Positions 36,925-49,005 are shown, counted from the stretch's first letter. The stretch: 64,000 nt of DNA from Candidatus Latescibacterota bacterium (GCA_965261395.1 OZ253462.1:96001-160000), one strand, 5' to 3'. Numbers and translations: made by a program. The notes: generated by a model not told the origin, from the sequence alone.

Positions 36925-37413
36925 TCAATCACAACGGGGGCGTCGCGTTTTTGCAAGATGCGCGGCATATTCATATACGGCCCGCTCTTGGGCGGCTGTC
37001 TCCACCGAGCCGGGGCGCAGACTCCGCACCTGGGTCAGGGCGTCCGCCGCGCTGCTGCCCTGACGCACCAAATAACTCGCCAACATCGTACCCGTGCGCC
37101 CCAATCCCGCGCTGCAATGGACCATCACGGGCCGTCCCTGCTCGACTGCCTCATCGACGAATTGGACAAACGCCCGTATATCCCCGAGCGCCGGCGGCTG
37201 CATATCCTGAATGGGCAAGTGCAAATACGCCATGTCGCGCGCCTCCACTTCGCGCACTTGCAGGGCGTTGGCGGTCAGCGACACAATCGCCTTGACGCCC
37301 TGCGCCGCCAGCAAATCGAGATCGCCCTCCAGCCGCTCCATTCCTTCCCAACCGCCAATCTGCCCAGCACCTGCCAACCGCCCTGCTAATAGCCAACCAA
37401 AATTGAACACCAT
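36925..37413 (-). CDS. Dual-specificity / PTP-superfamily phosphatase
   Basis: Active site VHCSAGLGRTG, IQDMQPP acid loop, VRSLRPGSVET..Q; start MVFNFGWL directly after moaE. Confidence 0.88.
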   Translation of the reverse strand: MVFNFGWLLAGRLAGAGQIGGWEGMERLEGDLDLLAAQGVKAIVSLTANALQVREVEARDMAYLHLPIQDMQPPALGDIRAFVQFVDEAVEQGRPVMVHCSAGLGRTGTMLASYLVRQGSSAADALTQVRSLRPGSVETAAQERAVYEYAAHLAKTRRPRCD

Positions 37414-37414
37414 C

Positions 37415-37855
37415 CTAGCGGCCTTCGCCGGCTGCCTGTGGCCCTTCAACCCAGCTCTCCCCCCCGACCCCCACTTCCTTCTTCCAGATCGGCACGATCT
37501 GCTTGAGTCGATCAATGGCGTACTGACACGCAGCCAACGCCTCGGCCCGATGCGGGCTAGCAACGGCAATTAACACGCTAATTTCGCCGATTTCGAGCTG
37601 GCCCACGCGGTGAATCATCGCCACATCCGCGACGCCCCACCGCGCCTTCAGCTCGTCGCCAATCTCGGCCATCTTGTTCTCGGCCATCGCCGGATACGCT
37701 TCGTACACCAAGTACTCGGTTTGCCGGTCCCCGGAGTGATTGCGCACCACGCCGGCAAACGTGGCCACCGCGCCATTTTCAGCGCGCAGCACGTCGGCAA
37801 ACAAAGCGCCGGGTTCAATTGGGTCTTCGGTAATTTTGAACACGTCAGCCCCCAC
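37415..37855 (-). CDS. moaE: Molybdopterin synthase catalytic subunit MoaE
   Basis: GAVATFAGVVRNH, YEAY, HRVGQL, SPHRAEAL, LKQIVPIWKKE. Confidence 0.95.
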   Translation of the reverse strand: MGADVFKITEDPIEPGALFADVLRAENGAVATFAGVVRNHSGDRQTEYLVYEAYPAMAENKMAEIGDELKARWGVADVAMIHRVGQLEIGEISVLIAVASPHRAEALAACQYAIDRLKQIVPIWKKEVGVGGESWVEGPQAAGEGR

Positions 37856-38090
37856 TTACAGGCGGAATAAGCGCCACCTCGTCGCCTGCTTTTAACACGG
37901 TATGCTTCCCCGTGTACTCGGCATTGACCGCAATCGACAACACCTGCTGTACCGCGGCCAGTTGCGGATACGCGGCCACCAGCTCGCGCTGCAAATCCGC
38001 GACCCGGTAGCCTTCGGCAATCTCCCAATCGCAGCTTTTGTGGCCGACGGCATCGCGGCAGGAAGCAAAAAATAAAACCTTTATTTTCAT
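37845..38090 (-). CDS. moaD: Molybdopterin synthase sulfur carrier MoaD
   Basis: MKIKVLFFA...AVNAEY...GDEVALIPPVSGG (C-terminal GG). Confidence 0.95.
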   Translation of the reverse strand: MKIKVLFFASCRDAVGHKSCDWEIAEGYRVADLQRELVAAYPQLAAVQQVLSIAVNAEYTGKHTVLKAGDEVALIPPVSGG

Positions 38091-38105
38091 ATCCAAGCGC
38101 AATAA

Positions 38106-38170
38106 CGCCGCGACCTTGCGACGGGTCGCGGCGACAAAAAGGAAATGGGACCCTTTTGAGGCCCCATTTC
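38106..38170 (-). terminator. Intrinsic terminator of the surface-protein operon plus a second GC hairpin
   Basis: GAAATGGGGCCT-CAAAA-GGGTCCCATTTC then CTTTTT (38170-38136), followed by CGCCGCGACC/GGTCGCGGCG stem (38106-38133). Confidence 0.8.
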
Positions 38171-38205
38171 ACAAACTAATTACTACTGTTTTTCCGCTGA
38201 GGAAC

Positions 38206-40254
38206 CTACCTGAGCAACACCATCTTGCGCTTAGCTACGTAGTCGCCGGCATGGAGCAAGTAAAAATACATGCCGCTGGCGACGCTAGCGCCGCTTTCGC
38301 TCCGGCCATCCCACACGGCTTGGTACTGACCTGCGGCCAGCGACTCGCCGTCAACCAGCTTGCGCACGACCTGACCCGCGATGTTGTAAATCGTCAGCGA
38401 GACGACAGCTTCGCTGCTCAGATCGTAGGGGATCGTCGTTTCCGGATTGAAAGGGTTGGGATAGTTTTGACTCAGCGAATTGGCCAACGGCCGGGCAGCT
38501 AGCGGCTTGGCCGCAGCCCAAGCCGCGCTGAAGTCAATCGTCAAGTCGAGGGTCTTGCCGGCAGCATTCTCCGTGGCAGTGCCCGCCGTAATGCTGAGGA
38601 AAGACACGAGCTCGGCGTCAACCTCAATCGACGAATTGCCGTCAGCATCGGTCGTATTGCGCACGAACGCGCTACCATGAGGGGGAATCGTGCCGATACC
38701 GAGCACGGACACCGACTCCGCGCTCCGGTTGTACACGTCCCACAAGATGGTCTGACCCTCGCCCGGATTGCCCCAGAGATCGGTGAAATTGACCGAGTAC
38801 TGGATCTCGCCGGGACTGCCGTCGTCAACCGCGCCCACGTCGGCCCCAGAAATCAACGCGTTGCCAACCAGCCGCGCGGTAGCGACTAGCACTGGATCCG
38901 GCCGGTTGAGGTACATGCTGCGACTCAACAACTCGGCATCCAAGTAATCGCGCACGCCGGACGACGGGCCGAGGGATACCTGGTGGACCACAATCTCCGC
39001 CTCGGTCTCCTCGGTAAAGTTGTCCGAGGTGACGAGGATGAAGCTCCCTATATGGGCATCGCCATCTACGGCATCGCTAATAACGACTGCGCCACCTCGC
39101 ACCTGATTCCCGGAGACTTCCACGCCCGGACCCGCCAGCCTAAACGCAGCAGAACCCGTAAACGTGGTTTTCTCTAGATCGAAGGCATCGGCGGGCGACA
39201 CCGTCACGGTGGCCTCAATCTGCTTCACGCCGGCTAGCCCGGCCGCCGACAGCACGACTGGGATTTTAGTACCCGGACCCGCGACTAGCTCGTTGAGGGC
39301 CTTGTCGTCGCTATTGAGGGAAACCTGCGAGACGAACATCAACTTGTCGGGATCTGGCACCGCCCAAGTGGCGTTGAAGTCAACCGCCAAGTCGATGGAA
39401 TCACCGACCGGATTTACAGCGGTCGTGCGCGCCCGAACGTCGAGCGAAGTCGCCGCGGCCTTTAAGTTGCCTTCGGAGTCGAACTGAACCACCGCATTGC
39501 CGGCGTCATCGGTCGCATTCCGCAGGCATACGTACACGCCGGAGGGCACCTCGCCGACACCGAGCAGATAGACCGACCGAGAACCCACATTCGTGATGTC
39601 CCAAGCAATGACTTGGCCCTTGGCCGGGGCACCATCATCGGTGAAATTGACCGAGAACTCGATCTCGCCGGGGCTGCCGTCCGCGGCCGCACCTGTGCCG
39701 ACCGAGGAATAGGCCGGGTTAAAGTCGAGCGGTGAGGTCGGCAACATATTCGGCGGAGGCACGGCCCAGTTGACGACAAACAGTCCCTCGGCACCAAGGA
39801 CATCCCGGTCCACAGATGACGACCCTATGGACACGCTGCTCACCACAAGCTCGGCCGGGGACTCCCTGCTAAAACTACTCGACATCGTGAGGGTAAAAAC
39901 ACCCAAAGCACCATCGCCATCTACCGCCTCGCCGAGAGTGGCCGCACCGCTTTTGATCTGCCCGTCTCCTAACAATTCCACACCGGGCGAAAAACCAAAA
40001 GCAGAGGTAAAGGTCGTCGCCTCCAGATCGAAGGCATCCGCGGGCAATACCGTCAGGATAACTTCAAACTGCTTTACCCCGACCATTCCAGCGGCCGACA
40101 GTGGCACCTGCACTTGTTCACCAGCACCGGCGGCGGCATGTTCCCCATCCAGCGAAATGACGACACTTGCGTTGTCCCCGGCGACAGCGGCACCACAGAG
40201 TGCGAGCAACAGGGCGATGGCAAGAGGAAACGTCTTGCGCACGCTGTTCTGCAT
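38206..40254 (-). CDS. Secreted 682-aa protein: (cohesin-like + Ig-like) x2 + T9SS/FlgD-type C-terminal domain
   Basis: Signal peptide; internal duplication (LSAAG..GVKQ.E...V.PADAFDLE.TTFT twice; DGSPGEI..SVNFTD...GQ.I.WD twice); NYPNPFNPETTI...SGMYFY...KMVLLR. Cohesin assignment is by pattern only. Confidence 0.8.
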   Translation of the reverse strand: MQNSVRKTFPLAIALLLALCGAAVAGDNASVVISLDGEHAAAGAGEQVQVPLSAAGMVGVKQFEVILTVLPADAFDLEATTFTSAFGFSPGVELLGDGQIKSGAATLGEAVDGDGALGVFTLTMSSSFSRESPAELVVSSVSIGSSSVDRDVLGAEGLFVVNWAVPPPNMLPTSPLDFNPAYSSVGTGAAADGSPGEIEFSVNFTDDGAPAKGQVIAWDITNVGSRSVYLLGVGEVPSGVYVCLRNATDDAGNAVVQFDSEGNLKAAATSLDVRARTTAVNPVGDSIDLAVDFNATWAVPDPDKLMFVSQVSLNSDDKALNELVAGPGTKIPVVLSAAGLAGVKQIEATVTVSPADAFDLEKTTFTGSAAFRLAGPGVEVSGNQVRGGAVVISDAVDGDAHIGSFILVTSDNFTEETEAEIVVHQVSLGPSSGVRDYLDAELLSRSMYLNRPDPVLVATARLVGNALISGADVGAVDDGSPGEIQYSVNFTDLWGNPGEGQTILWDVYNRSAESVSVLGIGTIPPHGSAFVRNTTDADGNSSIEVDAELVSFLSITAGTATENAAGKTLDLTIDFSAAWAAAKPLAARPLANSLSQNYPNPFNPETTIPYDLSSEAVVSLTIYNIAGQVVRKLVDGESLAAGQYQAVWDGRSESGASVASGMYFYLLHAGDYVAKRKMVLLR

Positions 40255-40290
40255 GGTTGCTTCTCCTTCTATTTATAAACCTGTTTTATA

Positions 40291-40336
40291 TAGTGAAATG
40301 GGACCCCAATTTGAGGTTTGAGGTCCCATTTCACTA
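40291..40336. other. Intergenic 15-bp perfect stem-loop without U-tract, homologous to the 38142-38170 terminator
   Basis: TAGTGAAATGGGACC-N16-GGTCCCATTTCACTA. Confidence 0.85.
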
Positions 40337-40356
40337 ACTCGCTGTACAGTGGGTGC

Positions 40357-43300
40357 TTACTTCAGCAACAGCATCTTCTTGATTTCGAGGAACTCTTCGC
40401 CCGCCTGCAAGCGGTAGAAGTACATCCCCGACGCCAAGCTGTGTCCGTTGTTGTTGGTCGCGTCCCACTCCACCACATAGCGACCGGCGCTCTGATGATC
40501 GGCAACCAGCATCCGCACCGGCTGACCTACTACATTATATACGGTCAGCTGCACGTCCGCCGCCTGCGGCAACGCATACTTGATCGTCGTCGCTGGGTTG
40601 AACGGGTTCGGATAGTTGTTCGCCAGCGCGAACGCTTCCGGCCGCGTCTGCAACTGCACCGGAGCCGGCAGGGCCAGACGATTGAAGCCAAACTCGCTGT
40701 CGTACGTCTGGTTGTCGGTGATCTCGACGACCGTGTTCTCGATCTCCGTGATAGCGCGGAAGACCAAGCTCAGCGGCACCTCGCCTACGGAGACCACGTC
40801 CCCGTAGGCGGCCACCGTCAAGACACCCGCTTGGTCAGCCAGCACCTGCGGCGTGGCCAACTCGCTGCCACTCAGCGGCTGATCGGTCAGCACCTCGACG
40901 AACTCCAGCTTGTCGGTTTCGTACTGCACCTGCAAGCCGTAGCCCTTGATCGCGGCAAAGTCTGCCACCCGCACGTCGAGGACAAAGTCCTCACCCACGA
41001 TGGGCATGACCGTCCGCGCGTCCAGATACATCCGCGCATCGGCATTCAAGCCCGCCAGCATCGGCACGCGCTTGCCAGCAGCAGCCGTGCTGCGACCGAA
41101 GTTGTCGGCAAAGACGAAGAAGTCGTCAAAGTCGATCGTCGCATTGGGTGCCAAGTCAAACGCCGGATCAAATCCAGCGTCTTCCGCGGTCAGCCCAAAG
41201 CTGTCGGCGAAGATGAAGAAGTCGTCGAAACCAATGCGGTTGTCAACACCGAACAGACCGAAGAGTGCGCGGCCTTCGCTATCCAGCACGCTGTTGCGAA
41301 CGGCCATCGCCGTCTGCTCGATGTCGGAACCGGTCTCGTTGTCCAAGTCGTAGGGCCGCACCTGATAGGTGTAGCGCACGCCGTTGAGCGCCGTCTCATC
41401 GACGAAGGACGTAATACCAGCGTCCACCTGTGCGACCGAGACGAACTCGTCTTCGCCCGCAGCGCGGCGATAGATGCCGTAGCCATGGACACCGACGACC
41501 TGCTCAAGCGCGGTCGGGCCAAAGGCCTCGGCAATGACGCCCTGCAAAAGCTGGTCAGACGGCGAAAGCGCCCAGGTCAGGAGGATCCGGCTACCCGCGT
41601 CGTTCGGCGCATCCAAGACGCTGAGCGACGGCACGGCCAACGGCGCGATATCGTCCGTAGCGCGAACCGGCTCTTCCGTCAAGGTAATCGCCGAGGACAG
41701 CACGCCTGCGACCAAGTTCAGCTTCGGAGCCACGCCCTGAGCGTATGCGAAGGCTTCCGGCAGCAGCGAAGCGAACACCGGTGCATCACCGGCTTGCGCC
41801 GCATCTCTGCTAGCCGTCATGGTCTCGGCCATCAGCTCGTAGGGGTTCTCAGCGTTGACGAACACGGCCTTAGCAGCACTGTGCGTGGTCTGACCACCGA
41901 GCTCGGCGGCAATGCCCCAGTTGGTGGCAACATTGTCGAGCGTGGCGACGACAGCGCGGCCAATCTGCACGCCAGGAACGGCGTCCACCATGGCCCAAGG
42001 AACCATCTCATTGCCCAGCACGGGTAGCTCGCGGAAGATGCGATAGCCGTCGATACCGTCGTGGTGCTCCGACAGGTCCCAAGTCAGCAGGACAAAGCCA
42101 CCTTGGTCCCCAGCGCCGTCAGCACCCTTGTAGTCTTCGGCCACCAACGCGTCGGGCGCATCCAGCGGAGGCTCGACGACCGCCACCAGGATCGGCAGCG
42201 AACGCGAAGCACCACTGCCGTCCGTAACCGTATAGGTAACGGCGACCGTCTCGCTCAACGTCGTGGGCGAGCCCGAAACCGTCCGCGTGTCCGGATCAAA
42301 CGACAGACCCGCGGGCAGCCCGGTCAGGCTGTAGGAGTAGGGCGGGGTTCCACCCTCGACCGCCGGTAGCGTCAGGCTGTACGGCTGGCCAACGACGATC
42401 TGGAGTACGCCATCCACATTTTCCTGCGCTGGATTGGCTTTGCCAGCGCCACTAGTGAACAGGCCGAGGAAGTCGCCAAAGGTCAACGGCGGGTTGACCG
42501 TGATGGTGAAGGTCAACGAGACGCTTTCGTCGCCGGCAGTCGCCGTGTAGGTGACCTCGGCGGCACCTTCAACATCGGTGGAGCCCGACAGCGTCCGCGC
42601 TTCCGCGTCAAACAACAGGCCAGCAGGCAACTCGGAGACGGTGTAGGCGATGTCGCCTTCACCGCCCGCAGCTACCGGCAGCACCACAGCACTCATCGGC
42701 GAACCTTTAGTGACTCCGACGTCGTCGATCATCATACCCTCGGCGAAGGCCAAATGATCCATCATCATGTCGTCGTCCATCGCCGCAATGTCGGTGATGA
42801 TGAGCGTTCCGGTGCCGTTTTCCAAACCTTCGATCACACCATTCAGCGTAATCGACTCGCTGTTCTCATCCGCGTCGTCGGCGAGGGGTGAAATGAGACC
42901 GTTTATCGAACCCGAGATCGCACCAGCCACAATCGTGAGCGTCGGATGGAACAGCATCCGGTAGTCCGAATCGCGCATGGCTTCCGAAGCAGGATCAACG
43001 GTGACGGTGACGGTCGCGTCGTCGTCCAGCACCTTGCCGTCCAAAGTCGCGGTGATCGTCAGTTCGGTAGCAGCGTCGCCCTCGGCCACCGTGTGCGGGC
43101 TAACCGACAGCGAGATGGAGGTGCTAGCGGTTTCGTCATCGGCGATCGTGGTATTCGTCGAGGCCGAACCACCGGAACCAGCGGCATGGACGCCGAACGA
43201 CCTGTTACCATCTGTTTCATCGTTGTTGATGGGCGTAAGGGTCAGCGTCGAGGAAGCTTGGGTCGCACCAGCCTCAATGGGAATGTTACCTAGCAGCGAT

Positions 43301-45600
43301 GCGGTGTAATCTACATCGCGGACGGCCGGCATAGCGCCGTCTGTGGCATTACCAATCGTGAAGCTGATCGTCCCGGCAACCGGAGCGGCTTCCGCCAAGG
43401 TAGCTGTAATCGAGATCACAGTCGTCTCCCCGTTTTCGCGGATCGACGTCTGAGTCGCGCTCACACTAGCGACCATAGTCGTGGGTGCCGGTGCCGCATC
43501 AACCTCAATCTTGATAGGCAATGCCACGGCGGCACCATCGGTATCAAGCACCGTGTAGGTGATAGTGGTTACCTCTGTGACCGCCGTCGGCGTACCCGAA
43601 ATCATCTGCGTAGCCGCGTCAAATAACAGGCCAGCAGGCAGGGCCGAGACGCTGTACAACTTATCGTCATCGGTACCACCCATAGCAGCAGGCAGTTCCA
43701 AAGGATCAATCGCCTTGCCAGCAACATAAGTCCAGACCGTGGCCCCCAGATCAACATCAGATTCAAAGGCCAGTGCGCCCGGATCGGCAGGCTCTGTCCC
43801 AGCCGGAGCATCTTTCAGCGTTATCGCTACCGCTTTAGCGTTGACTGCCACCCCATCTTCATTCTTCGTGGGGCTTGCCAACTGCGTCACGAAGAGCTTC
43901 GCATCCCCACCTTTCAAAGCGGTGATGGAGATCGACGTCGAACCACTTATCTTACCAGCCGAAATTGTCAGAGAACGAAGGACTGCGTCAAAGTCTATAT
44001 CGCGCTGCGCGTTTGCTGTACCAGCCACGTTTGCTGCAGTAGCATCAAATACAGTCGTTTTGGCAGCAAGGACCAAGACCACGGTCACATCCTCCTCAAA
44101 CCTCTTGCCGTTTATGGTTCCAGTGACCATGATCTCCTCACTCGTGCCCGCCGTTACCTCATCTGTATCCACTTCCAGCATTATCATATCGGTCGGCGTC
44201 TCGTCGTCGGAGATCGTTATTGTTCCTTTCGTAGAGGGTGCTCCGGTGACGGTAGCCACCACTACGAAGCTTTTATTTACATTCGGCCCATCGTTGTCGA
44301 GGACGGTAAGCGTGAGGGTCGCCGTCCCCTCTTTCGAGCCTGCGGGAATTGTGAGAGCACTGAACCCCGCTCTGTAATCCACATCGCGCTTGGCCGCTTC
44401 GTCCTCCATTGGGTCCTCGATCGTAAACGACACCTGCGCGGACTCCGACAACTCGTTTTTCAACGTAACGACCAAGTCAATCACCACCTCACCAGCGTCC
44501 TCGCGTACTGAGGGAAGAGACGGCTTCACCCCGTCAGGAGCTGCCTTTTTGGTGGCATCTATGAGGATGGGATCCCCAGAGGTAACCGTAAGTGCAATTC
44601 GACGGTTACGTGTCGCGCCTATTTTTACACCGTTAACCGCCGTGTCAAGATAGTCACCATCTCGGTTATAGTCGACCAGACCAGGTACACCAGCTATTAC
44701 TGGTGCGGTTTCATTCAGGGCATCCCGGATGGTTAAGTCCTCATTTGCAGCCCCATCCGTGGCCATGATTACGTATGCAACGATCCCGTACACCTGGACA
44801 CCCGTCGCAGCCTCACCCTCAGCCATGTTCATGTCCGTCGTCGTCAGCGCTATACCACCAGCCTTTTTGTTCAAGGGCGTGATCTCAATCTTCGCCGTTC
44901 CCGACGGGTCGCCTTTTCGGATTACTATTGGGACCCCGTCCCCTTTCCAATCCCGATCGCGTACCGCTCTATCCTCATCCGGGGGGTTTGCAGGATCAAA
45001 GAGCAAGGCAAACCTCAAGTTCTCTTTCAGCGTCGCTCCATCCAAGGTCGCTGTCACGGTGACAGCAGTCCGATCACCATCTTGGTTTATCATGGCCCCA
45101 CCATACGTGAGCTCAATACCCTCGCTTACCCCATCGTCATCGACCAGCGTAATCATCGCGTCGGTGTTAGTGATGGTGTAACCGTTGACGCCGGCGGTAA
45201 GTGTGTCAGGAAGAGTGGATTCAATCGTGATCACCAGATCATCACCGTCGTCGTCCATATTCTGGATGGGAGTTAGGGTGATCGTCAGCTTCGCCTCCTC
45301 CGTATCCTTCGGGATTATGATAGTGGGCAAATCCATATAGAAGCGACTATTGAGCGCACCGAGCGCATCATCATCAAGAGTCAAGCCCACATACGTAGGA
45401 TTATCCGGATCCTTAGTAGCGCGTTTGGCTGTAACGACTATCTCGGTGGCACCGCCATCTTCGCGCACCTTCATCTTGTCCACCGATAAGGTGATCCGTG
45501 TCTGTGCCTGCGCTTCCCCGGCCCAACCCAGCACCAAACCAAACGCCAGCAACCAAGGCACGTAGGCCAAGCGCCGGATTAACAACTTCGTGTGTATCAT
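40357..45600 (-). CDS. 1747-aa acidic secreted surface protein (Calx-beta-like and putative-Ig repeats, dockerin-like EF-hand pair, cohesin-like domain, T9SS/FlgD-type CTD); S-layer/adhesin candidate
   Basis: Signal peptide ending AQA-Q; repeated A.RD.DY.A...I..G / TI.DDE units; three LPAGL.FD...T.SG units; IGFDDFFIFADSFG...IDFDDFFVFADNFG; GEDFVLDVRV...GYGLQVQYETDKLEF; NYPNPFNP...KMLLLK; RBS GGAGGT. Confidence 0.85.
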   Translation of the reverse strand: MIHTKLLIRRLAYVPWLLAFGLVLGWAGEAQAQTRITLSVDKMKVREDGGATEIVVTAKRATKDPDNPTYVGLTLDDDALGALNSRFYMDLPTIIIPKDTEEAKLTITLTPIQNMDDDGDDLVITIESTLPDTLTAGVNGYTITNTDAMITLVDDDGVSEGIELTYGGAMINQDGDRTAVTVTATLDGATLKENLRFALLFDPANPPDEDRAVRDRDWKGDGVPIVIRKGDPSGTAKIEITPLNKKAGGIALTTTDMNMAEGEAATGVQVYGIVAYVIMATDGAANEDLTIRDALNETAPVIAGVPGLVDYNRDGDYLDTAVNGVKIGATRNRRIALTVTSGDPILIDATKKAAPDGVKPSLPSVREDAGEVVIDLVVTLKNELSESAQVSFTIEDPMEDEAAKRDVDYRAGFSALTIPAGSKEGTATLTLTVLDNDGPNVNKSFVVVATVTGAPSTKGTITISDDETPTDMIMLEVDTDEVTAGTSEEIMVTGTINGKRFEEDVTVVLVLAAKTTVFDATAANVAGTANAQRDIDFDAVLRSLTISAGKISGSTSISITALKGGDAKLFVTQLASPTKNEDGVAVNAKAVAITLKDAPAGTEPADPGALAFESDVDLGATVWTYVAGKAIDPLELPAAMGGTDDDKLYSVSALPAGLLFDAATQMISGTPTAVTEVTTITYTVLDTDGAAVALPIKIEVDAAPAPTTMVASVSATQTSIRENGETTVISITATLAEAAPVAGTISFTIGNATDGAMPAVRDVDYTASLLGNIPIEAGATQASSTLTLTPINNDETDGNRSFGVHAAGSGGSASTNTTIADDETASTSISLSVSPHTVAEGDAATELTITATLDGKVLDDDATVTVTVDPASEAMRDSDYRMLFHPTLTIVAGAISGSINGLISPLADDADENSESITLNGVIEGLENGTGTLIITDIAAMDDDMMMDHLAFAEGMMIDDVGVTKGSPMSAVVLPVAAGGEGDIAYTVSELPAGLLFDAEARTLSGSTDVEGAAEVTYTATAGDESVSLTFTITVNPPLTFGDFLGLFTSGAGKANPAQENVDGVLQIVVGQPYSLTLPAVEGGTPPYSYSLTGLPAGLSFDPDTRTVSGSPTTLSETVAVTYTVTDGSGASRSLPILVAVVEPPLDAPDALVAEDYKGADGAGDQGGFVLLTWDLSEHHDGIDGYRIFRELPVLGNEMVPWAMVDAVPGVQIGRAVVATLDNVATNWGIAAELGGQTTHSAAKAVFVNAENPYELMAETMTASRDAAQAGDAPVFASLLPEAFAYAQGVAPKLNLVAGVLSSAITLTEEPVRATDDIAPLAVPSLSVLDAPNDAGSRILLTWALSPSDQLLQGVIAEAFGPTALEQVVGVHGYGIYRRAAGEDEFVSVAQVDAGITSFVDETALNGVRYTYQVRPYDLDNETGSDIEQTAMAVRNSVLDSEGRALFGLFGVDNRIGFDDFFIFADSFGLTAEDAGFDPAFDLAPNATIDFDDFFVFADNFGRSTAAAGKRVPMLAGLNADARMYLDARTVMPIVGEDFVLDVRVADFAAIKGYGLQVQYETDKLEFVEVLTDQPLSGSELATPQVLADQAGVLTVAAYGDVVSVGEVPLSLVFRAITEIENTVVEITDNQTYDSEFGFNRLALPAPVQLQTRPEAFALANNYPNPFNPATTIKYALPQAADVQLTVYNVVGQPVRMLVADHQSAGRYVVEWDATNNNGHSLASGMYFYRLQAGEEFLEIKKMLLLK

Positions 45601-45767
45601 TACTCAACCTCCCCAGGGAAAACGTCCCTGATTAAGAAAGTGATATAAGAAGAAGATGGATTTGCTCTAAACCCACTTAGATGTTGCATTCGTGCATTTT
45701 TCATAAGCCCCCTTTCGCGGCTTTTCCGTTCACAATGCATAGCGCATTATCCTATATAATAGAGTTA

Positions 45768-45796
45768 ATTATACCGAGAAAAAATAGAAGTGTCAA
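45768..45796 (-). promoter_or_regulatory. Perfect-consensus sigma70 promoter P1 of the giant surface protein
   Basis: TTGACA-cttctattttttctcgg(17)-TATAAT, about 160-nt leader to ATG at 45600. Confidence 0.9.
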
Positions 45797-45942
45797 GAAT
45801 TAATTACCCTTAAAAACCTTGGCCAAAACGCCTTATCCCCCCTGTGCCATCCCCTATTTTCCACGGCGCGGCCAACGCCAAACCACCCAGCCCGCCAAAA
45901 TCGGGCGCTAGTTCGCTCCTTTTTTCGCGTGACAAAGTCTTT

Positions 45943-45970
45943 AGTATAGGCCGATAACCCCGCCTGTCAA
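45943..45970 (-). promoter_or_regulatory. Second upstream promoter P2
   Basis: TTGACA-16 bp-TATACT. Confidence 0.65.
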
Positions 45971-46000
45971 GGCCATTATCGATGAAAGGTTTCCCGCCCA

Positions 46001-46507
46001 TCACTCCTCCGGCTCGTACGATTCAGCCGACTCGGCCACGCGGTCGCCCGCATCCGCGCGCTCCACTCGATAAGAAAGCCCTGCCCGAATCGTCTCCAGC
46101 ATCCCATTCATCCGCGCCTGTTCCTGCTCCAACCGCCCCAACCGCTCGGAAAGCCCATCCATCTTATGGTCCTGACGCACCGCCAGCCCATCTATCCTCT
46201 CGTCCTGACGCACCGCCAGCCCATCTATCCTCTCGTCCTGACGCACCGCCAGCCCATCTATCCTCTCGTCCATCCGCACCAACAGCCCATCTATCCTCTC
46301 GTCCATCCGCACCAACAGCGCATCCATCTTATCGTCCATCCGCGCCGAGAGCCCATCTATCCTCTTGTCCAACCGGTCTGAAAGCGCCCGCATATCGGCG
46401 CGAATACCCCGCGTCGTAGCCAGTATTAACCCCGCCAACGCGATGCTGACGCTCGCCAAAGCGATACCAACGCCTATAACAGTCCAATTTATCGCACCAC
46501 TATCCAT
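46001..46507 (-). CDS. Single-TM coiled-coil protein with 11-aa repeats
   Basis: MDSGAINWTVIGVGIALASVSIALAGLILA then (DERIDGLAVRQ)n; the ORF-track extension to 46774 overlaps the upstream gene. Confidence 0.8.
   Translation of the reverse strand: MDSGAINWTVIGVGIALASVSIALAGLILATTRGIRADMRALSDRLDKRIDGLSARMDDKMDALLVRMDERIDGLLVRMDERIDGLAVRQDERIDGLAVRQDERIDGLAVRQDHKMDGLSERLGRLEQEQARMNGMLETIRAGLSYRVERADAGDRVAESAESYEPEE
46139..46369. repeat. 33-bp tandem repeat, 7 units (3 identical), in-frame VNTR
   Basis: CTGACGCACCGCCAGCCCATCTATCCTCTCGTC at 46172, 46205 and 46238; degenerate copies at 46139, 46271, 46304 and 46337. Confidence 0.95.
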
Positions 46508-46563
46508 AGCAGACGCCCCTTCAAGGCCATCGTCGGCTAATATCACGCACCCCCATCCCTTTG

Positions 46564-49005
46564 TCAACCATCCCGCCGCCGCTGCCGCCACGCCCCCACC
46601 CCCACGCCCACCACCACCACCAACCCCAGCAAAGCCGCCACCCGCGCCCCAACCAACACCGGCGAAAAATAGCGCAACTCCACCTCGTGCTCCCCCCCCG
46701 GCAACGCCACCCCCTTCCATATATAGTTCACCCGCAGCAGCTCGGCCTCCTCCCCATCCACCCACACCGACCAATTCGATTGGTAATTCTCCGACACCAC
46801 CAGCACGCGCGGCCCCCCGCTGTGCGTCCGCAGGCGAATCAACCCGTCCTTTGGATCGTACGCCAGCCGCTCCACCCGGTCGCCGGCCCGCTCCCCCGCG
46901 CCATCGAGCCGCACCGCCGGCGCACTCTCCAACAACGCCAGCCGCTGCGGATCCACCCGCCCACTCAACAGCCGCGCCAACACCGCCTCGCCACTATCCA
47001 ACACCTCGGCTTGCGGTACCAAGTAAAACCACGGCAACGCCTGCGGATTTTCGTACAGCCGAAAGCGCGCCCCCTCAAAGCGCCGCGGATACGCCGCCAA
47101 ATTCAATTCTAGCGGTTTAGGCACCGCCAAATACTTCCCATTGAGCAAATTCAACAACGACTGAAACCCAGCCGACGGCGCACCCGTGCGCAGAAACTGC
47201 TGCACCAGCGGCTCAAACTCCTTCAGCATCCGGTCGTAGCGCCCCACCGTCAAATCGTGAAAGCCCGTGATGGACCAAACGCCGTGCAAGTGATAGCCCG
47301 GCTCCTCCAGCACCCGAAAACTCGGCAAAGGCAAGACGCGAAACAGCGACTCATCGCTTTGCAAAAACTGCACCGCGCGCAGATTCTCGCGGCGAATATC
47401 CGTGTACCGGCCTGGATCCCGATAGCTCAAATAAACCCGATCAACGCGCCACGTATCGAACAGCGTCACCACACACAAGCCCGCCACCAACACCGTCGCC
47501 GAAAGCTGGCCCCCCAGCCGCAAATAGAGCAACGCCAACCCCGCACCCAAAGCCACCACCACACACCAACCGCCGCGCGCAATCCAATCGTAGCTCCCAG
47601 CCAACACCGCCCGCTTCTGCGGCGCAATATCTTCGTACAACAAATTCACCCACGCATCGGTCGCCCCCTTGGGAAACAGCGCGACCAGCAGGGCGAACGC
47701 GGCGAGAATACCGCCGACATAGGCCAAGCGACTCCGCAACAACGCCCGCTCATCCGCGTCCGCATCCAACACCCGCTGCAACCCCAACCCGGCCAGCGCA
47801 CACCCGGCAAACGCAAACACAAACGACCCCATGCCAATGGCCCGCTGCACATCCGCCCCAAGCAGCAAGTGAAACGCCAGCCAGTGCACGGGCGTGTGCT
47901 CGCCCAGCACGTAGGCCAACGCCAGCACAAACACGCCCCCCAGCAGCGCCACTTGCGGCCGCCGCCTACACTCCGGCACCATCAGCAAAGCCAACAGCAC
48001 GGCGAGCGCGCCAAAGTACTCGGAATTAATCTTAAACGCATTGCGTCCCCAATAGCGCGAGCCACCCTCTACCAGCACGTCGTCATACCCACCGAACTCC
48101 GGCACCACCAGCGACGCCACTTCCTCGGGATGCAGCGACCAGCTCTGCGCATACGCGAGCTGTTCCTCCGCGGTCTTGCCGCCCACCTCGTCGCCCGTGG
48201 CCCGCTTGGACTCGGCGCGGGTGTAGAGCATCACCGGAAAAGCCCCCTCGGCTCCCAAGGCCAACCCCAGCACCACCGCGCCGATAAAATGCACCACGCG
48301 CCGGATCACGGCTCGCTCGCGGCGCATCTGGTACAGCTTAAATAGGAAATAGACGCCCAGACCCAGCAGCGCGAAGTACGTCATCGGCGGATGGGAATAG
48401 ATGCACGCGCCAATCAGCGCGCCGAGAGCCGCCCAATAGATCAGCCGCCCCTGCGCCAGAGCCTTTTCCAACGCCCAGATAATCCACGGGAACAGGGCGA
48501 TGACGCCCATCTTGGCATAGTGGCCAGCCAAGGGGAACGCCAAAAAGGTCGGCGCGGACATGAACGCTACTCCGCCCCACAGCGCGGCGCGACCGCCCAC
48601 GTGGATTTGGCGCAAGTACGCGTACATACCGAGGCCAGCGGCGAACATCGTCAGGATATAGCGCCAGCCGATATACCGCTGAAAGGTCGTAAAAAAATAC
48701 AAGACGTAGGCCGGGAAGTATTGGGGACGAATGGCCTCGGACTGGGGGAAGCCGCCCATCTTGGGATCCCACATCGGCTGCGCCACCGTCTGCACCTTGT
48801 CCCAAAAGCTCAGGGCCGTGCCCTTGTGGTAGTCCGTGCCCACGTCCATGCCAAAGACGATCTTGTCCGACAGGGGAAATTCGTAGAAGTACAGCAGGCT
48901 CAGGGCGAGGAAAAAGACCGGCGGGAACAAGCGGTGATTCCACAGGGGCGACCCAGCGGCCTTTGCCGGGGCTTGGGTTTTGGCGCGTTTGTTCTTTTTG
49001 ACCAT
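46564..49005 (-). CDS. YfhO-family multi-pass membrane protein (putative GT-C glycosyltransferase)
   Basis: PMWDPKMGGFP, many TMs, SWSLHPEE, ENPQALPW, LVVSENYQSNWSVWVDG...RVNY...GVALPGGEHEVELRY, terminal TM. Confidence 0.85.
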   Translation of the reverse strand: MVKKNKRAKTQAPAKAAGSPLWNHRLFPPVFFLALSLLYFYEFPLSDKIVFGMDVGTDYHKGTALSFWDKVQTVAQPMWDPKMGGFPQSEAIRPQYFPAYVLYFFTTFQRYIGWRYILTMFAAGLGMYAYLRQIHVGGRAALWGGVAFMSAPTFLAFPLAGHYAKMGVIALFPWIIWALEKALAQGRLIYWAALGALIGACIYSHPPMTYFALLGLGVYFLFKLYQMRRERAVIRRVVHFIGAVVLGLALGAEGAFPVMLYTRAESKRATGDEVGGKTAEEQLAYAQSWSLHPEEVASLVVPEFGGYDDVLVEGGSRYWGRNAFKINSEYFGALAVLLALLMVPECRRRPQVALLGGVFVLALAYVLGEHTPVHWLAFHLLLGADVQRAIGMGSFVFAFAGCALAGLGLQRVLDADADERALLRSRLAYVGGILAAFALLVALFPKGATDAWVNLLYEDIAPQKRAVLAGSYDWIARGGWCVVVALGAGLALLYLRLGGQLSATVLVAGLCVVTLFDTWRVDRVYLSYRDPGRYTDIRRENLRAVQFLQSDESLFRVLPLPSFRVLEEPGYHLHGVWSITGFHDLTVGRYDRMLKEFEPLVQQFLRTGAPSAGFQSLLNLLNGKYLAVPKPLELNLAAYPRRFEGARFRLYENPQALPWFYLVPQAEVLDSGEAVLARLLSGRVDPQRLALLESAPAVRLDGAGERAGDRVERLAYDPKDGLIRLRTHSGGPRVLVVSENYQSNWSVWVDGEEAELLRVNYIWKGVALPGGEHEVELRYFSPVLVGARVAALLGLVVVVGVGVGAWRQRRRDG

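Follow-up and report, generated by a model that had tools for sequence, protein, structure and literature searches.

We found that two neighbouring genes on the minus strand of the window (the whole analysed stretch of DNA, 64,000 nucleotides) constitute a two-gene operon between a conserved consensus promoter and leader and a hairpin terminator. Structural models indicate that both products, P0001 and P0002, carry cohesin folds, and P0001 appears to end in a dockerin-cohesin-CTD cassette that recurs across a phylum. The reading we favour, with moderate confidence, is that the two proteins jointly build a single structure on the cell surface, either a coat or a fibrillar adhesin, through contacts of the cohesin-dockerin type. 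The locus, in window positions, was laid out as follows.

45943..45970, (-), distal promoter-like site TTGACA-16-TATACT, 11 of 12 consensus positions
45768..45796, (-), proximal promoter TTGACA-17-TATAAT, 12 of 12 consensus positions
45601..45761, (-), conserved 5′ leader with predicted hairpins, about 160–165 nt from a presumed RNA start
40357..45600, (-), P0001 gene, 1747-aa ORF, predicted large surface protein
40291..40336, (-), intergenic hairpin without a T-run, from the sequence
38206..40254, (-), P0002 gene, 682-aa ORF, predicted di-cohesin protein
38132..38170, (-), intrinsic-terminator-like hairpin with a 12-bp stem and T-run, from the sequence and RNA contig ends

The ORF map bore out the original prediction of two co-oriented genes of 1747 and 682 aa about 100 bp apart (spacing 102 bp), and the tandem consensus promoters and leader of about 160 nt that it described were also present. 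Among six other genomes of the genus, four had identical or nearly identical hexamers and spacer at the proximal promoter and a fifth lacked 1 nt; the distal TTGACA was kept in 4/7 aligned upstream regions, the window counted. The number of promoter-like sites in the region did not exceed that of shuffles (5 versus 3.9 ± 2.1). The leader was kept in five of six same-genus relatives; its consensus fold (−30.1 kcal/mol, 38 pairs) showed a compensatory change in only one pair. The Rfam scan of 37900–46600 assigned no family to the leader and gave just two sub-threshold matches, both on the intergenic hairpin, which recurs after two paralogous genes (genome positions 796070 and 231039).

Transcription was assessed using contigs of four sponge metatranscriptomes from two studies, mapped at 90% likeness. 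Low expression, which had been named beforehand as evidence against a coat, was not what we saw: RNA depth over the operon was roughly 10–100 times that of the flanks in all four runs. Per-contig depth was 51–560 for P0002, 197–1925 for the 3′ part of P0001 and 4–35 for the flanking genes, contig depth being a rough measure that paralogues may inflate in the P0001 3′ part (L016 is 83% identical there). Depth was about 0–3 upstream of the bin 45314–45947 and climbed within it, and contigs of both studies ended at 38181–38186, with depth falling from 58–475 to about 5 at the terminator. One contig of run X1 (39829–40437) spanned the hairpin between the two genes, and contigs of run X5 had adapter ends on either side of it (40271, 40338). 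Cover of the N-terminal half of P0001 (about 43400–45300) was scant at 90% likeness, which we read as strain variation because this region evolves fast, a pattern that contigs do not distinguish from an absent transcript.

P0001 was divided into the following parts.

42766..45504, (-), aa 33–945, six related repeats of about 120 aa ending in xIxIxDD(D/E), pairwise phmmer 13–46 bits
42181..42738, (-), aa ~955–1140, He_PIG / cadherin-like Ig domains, Pfam He_PIG 81.6 bits, three stretches
41284..42153, (-), aa 1150–1439, two beta-rich segments around a helical or disordered stretch, FN3-like by motif only
41065..41283, (-), aa 1440–1512, putative degenerate dockerin with two F-hand repeats FDDFFxFADxFG, by profile match to solved dockerins
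40624..41058, (-), aa 1515–1659, predicted cohesin module of the P0001 type, by fold comparison, sub-threshold in Pfam
40360..40614, (-), aa 1663–1747, type-A T9SS C-terminal sorting domain, by TIGR04183, Por_Secre_tail and FlgD_ig

The repeats were detected by phmmer between hand-cut units, self-BLAST of the N-terminus having given nothing, and their profile had no match among PDB sequences. A He_PIG Ig domain around aa 620–700 interrupts the string. Two of the families named earlier for an HMM scan fared differently: He_PIG was recovered at the score listed above, whereas Calx-beta (PF03160, cut-off 27 bits) had no match in aa 1–867 at E up to 1, sub-threshold matches being confined to paralogues (L017, 21.9 bits; L020, 24.1 bits). 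The stretch at aa ~955–1140 also matched the SraP adhesin 4m03_A (E 6.1e-6), and the repeat region was the most variable part between genomes (31–41% identity in the first ~260 aa). No Pfam match was obtained for aa 1150–1439, where the model was of low confidence (block pLDDT 22–66); the model of aa 1150–1747 was poor overall (mean pLDDT 45.6), with only the cohesin part usable. The N-terminal two thirds of P0001, which diverge fast, resemble repeat-domain adhesins (SraP cadherin-like, He_PIG and Calx-beta strings), whereas its base is the dockerin-cohesin-CTD cassette where theirs is LPXTG, autotransporter or RTX/T1SS. Pfam and NCBIfam found no catalytic family in P0001 or P0002, as had been proposed.

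P0002 comprised four parts.

39769..40182, (-), aa 25–162, predicted cohesin module 1 of the P0002 type, by fold comparison, pLDDT above 90
39358..39762, (-), aa 165–299, Ig-like domain 1, matching intimin D0-D1 6tpl_B (Z 9.8, rmsd 2.8, 97 aligned)
38530..39282, (-), aa 325–575, second cohesin plus Ig unit, 45% identical to unit 1
38209..38487, (-), aa 590–682, type-A T9SS C-terminal sorting domain, TIGR04183 33.7 bits

Fold comparison upheld the cohesin-like and Ig-like character that had been guessed for these modules. The first P0002 module (aa 25–162) aligned with 2vo8_A at Z 14.8 and rmsd 2.4 over 126 of 135 residues with 21% identity, and cohesins were named in 13 of its top 15 fold rows (mean pLDDT of the P0002 model, 82.1). 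The two halves of P0002 share 45% identity along 262 aa (E 6e-65), in keeping with the predicted pair of cohesin-like plus Ig-like units, and a cohesin HMM built from relatives matched aa 325–455. For P0001, aa 1519–1655 aligned with the same structure at Z 13.2 and rmsd 2.6 over 129 residues (VIA-align; model part pLDDT 63–86); cohesins were named in 14 of the top 20 fold rows, and pilin domains appeared in the list at Z about 11, leaving a cohesin margin of about 1.6 Z units. The Cohesin HMM scan that had been suggested did not reach the Pfam cut-off of 24.1 bits for either protein: P0001 scored 17.0–18.6 bits (PF00963) and P0002 had no match at E up to 0.1. At the homologous place, four of six distant homologues of the P0001 module exceeded it (24.6–35.3 bits). 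The models thus indicate that both proteins carry real cohesin folds, with the nine-stranded jelly-roll beta-sandwich, that Pfam misses. BLASTP detected no similarity between the P0002 and P0001 cohesins, which are two separate lineages. A Foldseek search with the whole of P0002 returned generic multi-Ig matches, including the S-layer proteins 7ptp_A and 4aq1_A, and was set aside as non-specific (TM-scores 0.12–0.24).

The duplicated FDDFFxFADxFG motif, previously noted as EF-hand-like, was present in the P0001 translation at aa 1456–1502 (GFDDFFIFADSFG / DFDDFFVFADNFG), and several comparisons suggest that it is a degenerate dockerin. P0001 has the two tandem F-hand repeats of about 22 residues that characterise dockerins; a profile of three genome copies matched the solved dockerin 2y3n_B over both repeats (E 3.9e-5, 27.4 bits) and 4wi0_B / 4u3s_B at E 0.003. 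At the same place, the distant homologues L124, L125 and L127 have canonical DxNxDG loops, and in distant homologues a conserved GK..P...G.N linker follows. The dockerin HMM scan proposed earlier left P0001 under the family cut-offs (NCBIfam dockerin_GC 15.6 bits against 29; no Dockerin_1, PF00404, at E up to 0.1), and two of six distant homologues gave Pfam dockerin scores of 18.2 and 20.3 bits, below 22.9. Of the calcium ligands at loop positions 1, 3, 5, 9 and 12, repeat 2 reads D1, A3, N5, D9 and D12 and repeat 1 keeps 2/5, so that by our reading of the alignment the full set does not occur in both repeats. An hhalign comparison of the FDDFF alignment with the canonical dockerins of the same genome found no significant likeness (probability 0.95%). 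At low confidence (pLDDT 24–35), the model places three short helices at aa 1458–1467, 1479–1482 and 1491–1500. Invariant columns among 27 sequences numbered 38/73 in the dockerin region, 46/85 in the sorting domain, 59/145 in the cohesin and 102/290 in the FN3-like part; by this count of ours, conservation is similar in the dockerin region and the sorting domain, and higher in both than in the other two.

The dockerin-cohesin didomain was found in 146 of the 168 Gemmatimonadota genomes sampled, always with the dockerin first and a short conserved linker between the modules across families. The P0002-type cohesin was confined to one family (71/75 genomes). A P0001-family gene immediately preceded the P0002 orthologue in all ten same-genus loci with upstream DNA, seven of these genes having the full dockerin-cohesin part, and a P0002-type gene lay directly downstream of a didomain gene, on the same strand and 400–500 bp apart, in 23 genomes of eight other genera (a count matched by eye from listing rows). 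Searches with the whole of P0002 were drawn to the sorting-domain motif and gave CTD-only matches in many FCB phyla, of no use for synteny. This genome encodes six or more paralogues of the P0001 family, and copies of about 1900 aa number more than ten in two genomes of the genus. The dockerin-cohesin-CTD ending is a phylum-wide cassette, found also on a multihaem cytochrome, and the two-gene unit is not unique in design.

Against the favoured reading, the dockerin is degenerate, has no significant hhalign likeness to the canonical dockerins of the genome, and is not confidently folded beside its own cohesin (pLDDT 24–35). The two modules and their conserved linker could also be packed in cis and bind nothing in trans.

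On this last arrangement the didomain would be intramolecular, a rigid pedestal separating the passenger from the sorting domain, and P0001 and P0002 would each act separately as adhesins on sponge matrix or cells, with no more than an operon in common; we regard this as possible, if on balance doubtful. It accords with the invariable module order and short linker, with the degenerate calcium loops, and with the variable N-terminal repeats and He_PIG / SraP-like domains typical of adhesins; the occurrence of the cassette on unrelated passengers, the multihaem cytochrome included, would suit a general structural or export-related module. Against it, packing of the dockerin against the cohesin is not confident in the model, which was built from a shallow alignment. 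The same genome encodes L017, with a cohesin and no full dockerin, and L019, a small protein with a dockerin only, which makes binding in trans the easier explanation. The adjacency of P0002-type genes in eight other genera further argues for a joint function.

The genome also encodes canonical dockerins, in an N-terminal CarboxypepD_reg-FlgD_ig-Dockerin_1 cassette conserved in 13 intact ORFs and one split ORF. Compared with that of L001, which heads the alignment, these dockerins are 49–64% identical, and their calcium loops are complete; their ORFs carry PD40 or YWTD propellers and Ank, LRR, FGE-sulfatase, P_proprotein, CARDB and GSDH modules. No glycoside-hydrolase catalytic family exceeded its Pfam cut-off in the 16 dockerin-cassette ORFs and fragments scanned, and the dockerins of this genome are not on carbohydrate-active enzymes as those of a cellulosome are. 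The original prediction had offered P0002 as a docking hub for other dockerin-bearing proteins. P0002 would then be a T9SS-anchored scaffoldin for the 13–14 canonical type-I dockerin proteins, a non-cellulosomal display of eukaryote-like proteins. Its two cohesins and anchor are scaffoldin-like, and since the genome has only seven cohesin-fold modules, of two types, one type is the likeliest receptor; a comparable arrangement has been inferred in silico for Cloacimonadota (PMC8542988). The distribution of the modules makes this unlikely. The canonical cassette was found in 39 of 75 family genomes against 71/75 for the P0002-type cohesin, and in 0/8 and 0/5 genomes of two genera in which 7/8 and 5/5 have that cohesin; the docking-hub idea is weakened because the cassette was in 0/13 of these genomes and the cohesin in 12/13. 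Conversely, all 41 class members sampled have Dockerin_1 modules, including 16 with no match to P0002 aa 1–590.

Both proteins have N-terminal segments that resemble signal peptides by eye (helix at aa 8–23 in the P0002 model) and similar C-termini, NYPNPFNP...KKMLLLK in P0001 and NYPNPFNP...RKMVLLR in P0002, as originally described. TIGR04183 was above its cut-off of 23 in both (32.4 bits for P0001); Por_Secre_tail (cut-off 27) scored 27.0 bits in P0001 and 24.6, below cut-off, in P0002, and FlgD_ig 42.8 in P0001. The P0002 CTD fold matched the CTDs of PorU (6za2_B, Z 11.4), PorZ (5m11_A, Z 9.7) and mirolase (8qb1_A, Z 8.8). The genome has 95 TIGR04183 matches, SprA (595 bits) and PorU (618 bits) above their cut-offs, and, adjoining PorU, a PorV-like gene (150 bits, below the cut-off of 250). 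GldM (TIGR03517, PF12081) and GldL (TIGR03513) had no match in the genome, nor any meaningful match in control genomes, and GldK matches were generic FGE-sulfatase domains only. The predicted type IX secretion is supported as regards the sorting domains, SprA, PorU and the PorV-like gene and not as regards the GldL/GldM motor: the T9SS looks partial on these searches, and we call the route only T9SS-like because GldL and GldM were not found and the GldK-like matches are generic.

TfsA and TfsB of Tannerella forsythia, which are not known to contain cohesin or dockerin modules, offer a parallel: neighbouring genes encode two T9SS cargo proteins, each with a CTD, that form an abundant surface structure, and the S-layer is missing from T9SS mutants (PMC4175972). 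A true two-dimensional S-layer of this kind would fit the two-gene operon, with sorting domains on both products and no enzymes, as well as the consensus promoter, the long conserved leader and the very high relative RNA contig depth, and S-layer proteins stood among the generic Foldseek matches of P0002. We nevertheless consider it very improbable, given the P0001 paralogues in this genome and the many copies in two genomes of the genus, N-termini whose fast divergence suits variable adhesins better than a lattice protein, and the non-specific TM-scores of those matches.

A joint surface structure, the reading that we prefer, may be pictured as follows. The locus would be an operon for abundant non-enzymatic surface proteins of a sponge-associated Gemmatimonadota bacterium, exported by a Sec signal peptide and a type-A T9SS-like sorting domain. 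P0001 is a long beta-sandwich string, with a variable part of six Calx-like repeats and He_PIG Ig domains on a conserved base of degenerate dockerin, short linker, cohesin and sorting domain; P0002 consists of two cohesin plus Ig units and a sorting domain. Assembly would take place near the outer membrane, where the P0001 dockerin may engage a cohesin in trans, either that of P0002 or that of another cassette-bearing protein, while the variable N-terminal part of P0001 projects outward. The analysis shows folds, homology, sorting domains, operon structure, conserved gene pairing and transcription, whereas T9SS export, anchoring, each step of binding and the supramolecular form are inferred. 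Head-to-tail polymerisation, cross-linking by P0002 and a lattice, as originally envisaged, would be further steps that we infer.

Cohesin-dockerin pairs are known chiefly as the glue of cellulosomes. To our knowledge, non-cellulosomal occurrences are many and almost none has an assigned function; Peer and colleagues reportedly described, in 2009, Archaeoglobus fulgidus proteins with a cohesin and a dockerin in one polypeptide. P0001 and P0002 share the jelly-roll fold of solved modules (the Clostridium perfringens GH33 cohesin 2vo8, the GH84C cohesin-FN3 2w1n and the A. fulgidus cohesin 2xdh) and, with known systems, a dockerin segment of two F-hand repeats and tandem cohesins on a protein that has no catalytic domain. 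They differ in scoring below Pfam cut-offs, in their degenerate calcium loops, in anchoring by a type-A T9SS sorting domain instead of SLH or sortase, in a fixed dockerin-cohesin didomain directly before that domain and, with regard to cellulosomes, in the lack of carbohydrate-active enzymes on the dockerins of the genome. Ca. Stygibacter (Cloacimonadota), likewise of the FCB group, has a cellulosome-like system predicted from genomes only, in which secreted proteins bear dockerins and tandem cohesins occur on a non-catalytic protein ending in a T9SS CTD (PMC8542988). Its dockerins are on GH18, GH57 and peptidases and its scaffoldin has CBM2/CBM3, whereas here there is no enzyme or CBM, dockerin and cohesin occur in one protein and the cassette is phylum-wide. 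Titles and abstract openings in the literature searched yielded no link of Gemmatimonadota or sponge symbionts, Poribacteria included, to cohesin-dockerin, and we found none of sponge Gemmatimonadota to type IX secretion. P0001 and P0002 belong with the non-cellulosomal cohesin-dockerin surface systems, as a variant not known before.

More broadly, and with little confidence, the cassette could be a general self-assembly device of Gemmatimonadota. After removal of the sorting domain and fixing to the outer membrane, a membrane-proximal cohesin would capture the dockerin of the next molecule, so that cassette cargo such as variable adhesins and multihaem cytochromes would be daisy-chained into an S-layer-like basal network, and in one family the adjacent cohesin-only P0002 would set the mesh, acting as a chain end or branch point. 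If so, what the sponge symbionts present to their host would be this coat, which is highly expressed. The didomain is often multi-copy and carried on unrelated passenger domains, and standard annotation records it only as a 'T9SS sorting domain protein'; the system is easily tested with small recombinant modules. If the modules bind in trans, they would represent a new way of building or organising a diderm bacterial surface and would give access to the way in which abundant symbionts of sponges display their surface to the host.

Both genes lie on the minus strand, 102 bp apart, in a single 6.55-Mb contig of which the window is bases 96001-160000. The features of the region are as follows, in window coordinates unless amino acids are stated.

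40357-45600, minus strand: ORF of the 1747-aa surface protein (P0001), from ORF call and translation
38206-40254, minus strand: ORF of the 682-aa di-cohesin protein (P0002), from ORF call and translation
P0001 aa 33-945: six related repeats of ~120 aa, each ending xIxIxDD(D/E)
45796-45768, minus strand: proximal promoter, TTGACA-17-TATAAT, from scan
45970-45943, minus strand: distal promoter, TTGACA-16-TATACT, from scan
40291-40336, minus strand: intergenic hairpin without a T-run, closely similar to the hairpin after P0002
38170-38142, minus strand: 12-bp hairpin with a T-run, 3' of P0002

Translations and the promoter scan recovered, in place, every sequence feature described in the original prediction, including the hydrophobic N-termini and NYPNPFNP...KMxLL ends of both proteins and the duplicated FDDFFxFADxFG motif (P0001 aa 1456-1502). 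Near-identical public proteins from Gemmatimonadetes/Gemmatimonadota MAGs carry the sole name “T9SS type A sorting domain-containing protein”. Pfam recognized He_PIG in three stretches of P0001 (81.6 bits) and a C-terminal FlgD_ig/Por_Secre_tail domain, which in P0002 was the sole domain; as had been proposed, neither protein matched a catalytic family. The NCBIfam type-A sorting domain (TIGR04183) scored 32.4 bits in P0001 and 33.7 bits in P0002 (cut-off 23). Cohesin, Dockerin and Calx-beta were all without a Pfam match in either protein at E values up to 0.1, and the NCBIfam dockerin model gave 15.6 bits at P0001 aa 1451-1501 against a cut-off of 29; from sequence libraries alone, the cohesin–dockerin reading was not borne out.

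Structure prediction and fold comparison assigned cohesin folds to the cohesin-like segments of both proteins, in agreement with the original reading. The P0002 model, built from 59 sequences including distant relatives from a representative search, had a mean pLDDT of 82.1 and exceeded 90 over most of aa 30-300. Compared with 48,161 solved chains, its residues 25-162 best matched cohesins (2vo8_A, Z 14.8, rmsd 2.4, 126 of 135 residues, 21% identity), which were named in 13 of the 15 top rows. Residues 165-299 resembled Ig-like intimin domains (Z 9.8) and residues 590-682 resembled sorting domains (PorU Z 11.4, PorZ Z 9.7, mirolase Z 8.8), and the two halves of the protein repeat each other, 262 aligned aa being 45% identical (E 6e-65). 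The C-terminal 598 residues of P0001 were modelled from a shallow alignment (27 sequences, 73-97% identity) and the model was poor (pLDDT 45.6) with a usable part at aa 1519-1655 (pLDDT 63-86). That part also best matched cohesins (2vo8_A, Z 13.2, rmsd 2.6, 129 aligned), named in 14 of the 20 top rows, with pilin domains next (Z ~11). Pairwise comparison found no sequence similarity between the P0001-type and P0002-type cohesins, which represent two lineages. A stand-alone 187-aa protein (G000:C1:1100873-1101436, minus strand) comprises little beyond one P0002-type cohesin; its ~200-aa relatives, without a Pfam family, were common in the representative search.

The segment bearing the FDDFF motif has three clear copies in the genome: P0001, its 812-aa paralogue L016, and the 227-aa protein L019. 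A profile of the three matched a solved dockerin in the PDB (2y3n_B, E 3.9e-5) over both repeats, followed by two more dockerin-bearing chains (E 0.003) and then EF-hand proteins. Distant homologues of the didomain, that is, the dockerin plus cohesin of P0001, carry canonical loops at the same positions (e.g. DINDDGTVGVDDF, DFNGDKRVDFED), and Dockerin_1 reached 18-20 bits in two of six of them. By the profile match and these loops the segment is a dockerin by descent, as the original reading had it, in a degenerate form: the P0001 lineage has lost most calcium ligands of the first loop and has Ala at position 3 of the second. In the model this region had a pLDDT of 24-35 and the fold was not obtained. 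Its conservation resembles that of the sorting domain (38 of 73 versus 46 of 85 invariant columns, by our own count on the alignment). At G000:C1:1790747-1792213, L019 and an adjoining 242-aa ORF, the latter matched weakly (E 1.6e-4), bear FDDFF-type dockerins with neither a cohesin nor a sorting domain found; these small proteins could be free dockerin-only partners.

The N-terminal part of P0001 is variable. Orthologues share 31-41% identity in the first ~260 residues versus 73-86% in the C-terminal 465. The repeats look Calx-beta-like, but membership of this family was not confirmed: only two paralogues gave scores, both sub-threshold (21.9 and 24.1 versus 27), and the repeat profile found nothing among solved structures. 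The genome contains at least five paralogues sharing parts of the architecture (L016, L017 and L020, plus a further two within a cluster at 231-246 kb). In the same genus, the genomes G003 and G142, only 4.2-4.5 Mb in size, each encode more than 10 copies of ~1880-1950-aa proteins with a 71-75% identical didomain, and many ~1430-1530-aa copies matching from query residue ~33-55, which amounts to a large multigene expansion.

Of 168 Gemmatimonadota genomes, 146 contained a match to the didomain (aa 1440-1661) at E values up to 1e-5, among them every sampled genome of the four families of the class (75/75, 31/31, 3/3 and 22/22). Matches often numbered 17 or more per genome, and across the phylum they include didomain homologues of 32-60% identity. 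In six distant homologues the dockerin–cohesin pair again precedes a sorting domain, and in four of them the corresponding segment scored above the Pfam Cohesin cut-off. The passenger of one of the six is a multihaem cytochrome: L125 (G026:C70:15000-17200), from another family of the class, combines multihaem cytochrome c domains (Cytochrom_C552, paired CXXCH motifs and MtrC/MtrF-like hints) with the dockerin–cohesin–sorting domain cassette.

Within the window's family, the P0002-type cohesin was found in 71 of 75 genomes; outside the family it was found in 0 of 93. At all 10 same-genus loci having upstream DNA (an eleventh locus, cut by a contig end, is outside this count), the P0002 orthologue is immediately preceded by the end of a P0001-family gene, with the full dockerin–cohesin part in seven. 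By-eye comparison of the listed matches in other genera showed the didomain and the P0002-type cohesin co-oriented and 400-500 bp apart in 23 genomes from eight of these genera, where the partner is a single-cohesin protein of 520-565 aa. The relatives are not independent, but retention of the pair across genera at 35-60% identity provides good evidence for a joint function. Alternatively, the didomain may be a pedestal packed in cis, with P0001 and P0002 acting as independent adhesins, a reading that we consider rather unlikely.

The genome also encodes candidate clients for a docking hub, one of the two roles that the original prediction offered for P0002. Loci L001-L014 (e.g. G000:C1:3693780-3695975) comprise 13 intact ORFs and one split ORF that open with the same conserved cassette: signal peptide, CarboxypepD_reg, an internal FlgD_ig/T9SS-CTD-like domain, and a canonical type-I Dockerin_1 (aa 235-305 in L001) with full calcium loops. 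It is odd to find a sorting-domain-like fold at the N-terminus, ahead of a dockerin. The modules that follow are PD40 or YWTD propellers, ankyrin, LRR, FGE-sulfatase, P-domain, CARDB or GSDH. Such “eukaryote-like” repeats are a frequent observation in sponge symbionts; the Pfam scan found no carbohydrate-active enzymes on these proteins. In the split gene, L013 (G000:C1:1080037-1082621), the dockerin is divided over two adjoining ORFs, which points to a frameshift, stop or assembly error. These clients would make P0002 a scaffoldin for canonical-dockerin proteins, but their distribution does not follow that of P0002: the cassette was found in only 39 of the 75 family genomes, and 13 genomes from two genera gave no match to it although 12 of them have the P0002-type cohesin. 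Plain Dockerin_1 modules were present in 41 of 41 class members irrespective of a match to the P0002 query. We regard the scaffoldin as distinctly improbable; given this patchiness, it is the upstream didomain protein, rather than this cassette, that is the steady partner of P0002.

About one third of sampled words were found in RNA runs labelled as sponge metagenome or coded organisms. These data are assembled contigs only, from which starts, strand and level are not directly readable. Depths, taken from single contigs with few mismatches and thus a rough measure unsuited to ranking, were 4-35 for flanking genes, 51-560 for P0002 and 197-1925 for the 3' third of P0001, the last possibly inflated by paralogues that share 83% identity over the C-terminal part. 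P0002 and this part of P0001 exceeded the flanks in 4/4 runs from two studies. The variable N-terminal half of P0001 was barely covered at 90% likeness, and a contig at 45913-46210, holding the distal promoter and DNA upstream, had a depth of ~4. Contigs from both studies end at 38181-38186, just ahead of the terminator hairpin; one contig (39829-40437) spans the intergenic region, and in one run adapter-terminated ends flank the intergenic hairpin on both sides. These observations fit strong transcription of the two genes as one unit, with some termination or processing in the gap that separates them. Near-identical hairpins (GAAATGGGRCC...GGTCCCATTTC) lie 3' of P0001, of P0002 and of two of the genome's paralogous genes for surface proteins (genome 796070-796105 and 231039-231067), and only that after P0002 has a T-run. 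Some 570 bp past the terminator lies a dual-specificity protein phosphatase gene (Tc-R-P/DSPc, 36925-37569, minus strand). A 174-aa ORF (37648-38172) belongs to no known family and runs into the terminator, and is therefore probably not a gene.

The tandem promoters are the best two among the region's promoter-like sites, whose number is not above chance (5 versus 3.9 ± 2.1). The proximal promoter and spacer are exact in four of six other same-genus genomes and differ by a 1-nt deletion in one more, and the ~165-nt leader is kept in the same five, where the DNA upstream of the promoter diverges; in the sixth the upstream region is unrelated. Rfam matched no family in the region, leader included. 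The consensus fold predicts three hairpins and a helix pairing CUUUCU with the GGGGAGG ribosome site; as compensatory change was seen at a single pair, this structure is a suggestion. The CUUUCU:GGGGAGG pairing, predicted within 45601-45640, might exert translational control, without supporting covariation.

The genome holds 95 type-A sorting-domain matches. T9SS-like machinery, whose absence would have counted against the original prediction, was recovered as SprA (595 bits), PorU (618 bits) and an adjoining PorV-like gene (150 bits, under the cut-off of 250), and the system looks partial: three models found no GldL or GldM, controls likewise gave no signal, and GldK searches returned generic FGE-sulfatase-type matches only. 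The motor may have diverged strongly or be of another kind.

Non-cellulosomal cohesin and dockerin modules are reportedly spread over the three domains of life (Peer et al. 2009). As far as the literature was searched, neither the fixed dockerin–cohesin–sorting domain cassette and its spread through Gemmatimonadota, nor the conserved association of the cassette with an adjacent cohesin-only protein, nor its high transcription in sponge symbionts is in print. In one genome-based account, a Cloacimonadota genus is inferred to have a tandem-cohesin protein with a T9SS sorting domain and dockerin-bearing enzymes (PMC8542988). There the dockerins are on enzymes, whereas dockerins in the window's genome occur without carbohydrate-active enzymes. 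Tannerella exports its S-layer proteins by T9SS (PMC4175972), and a true S-layer like TfsA/TfsB is for the P0001–P0002 pair a highly improbable reading. We instead favor, at about an even chance, a single abundant surface structure formed by P0001 and P0002 and held near the outer membrane by putative cohesin–dockerin-type contacts, in which the P0001 dockerin would pair in trans with a cohesin while its variable repeats would point outward.
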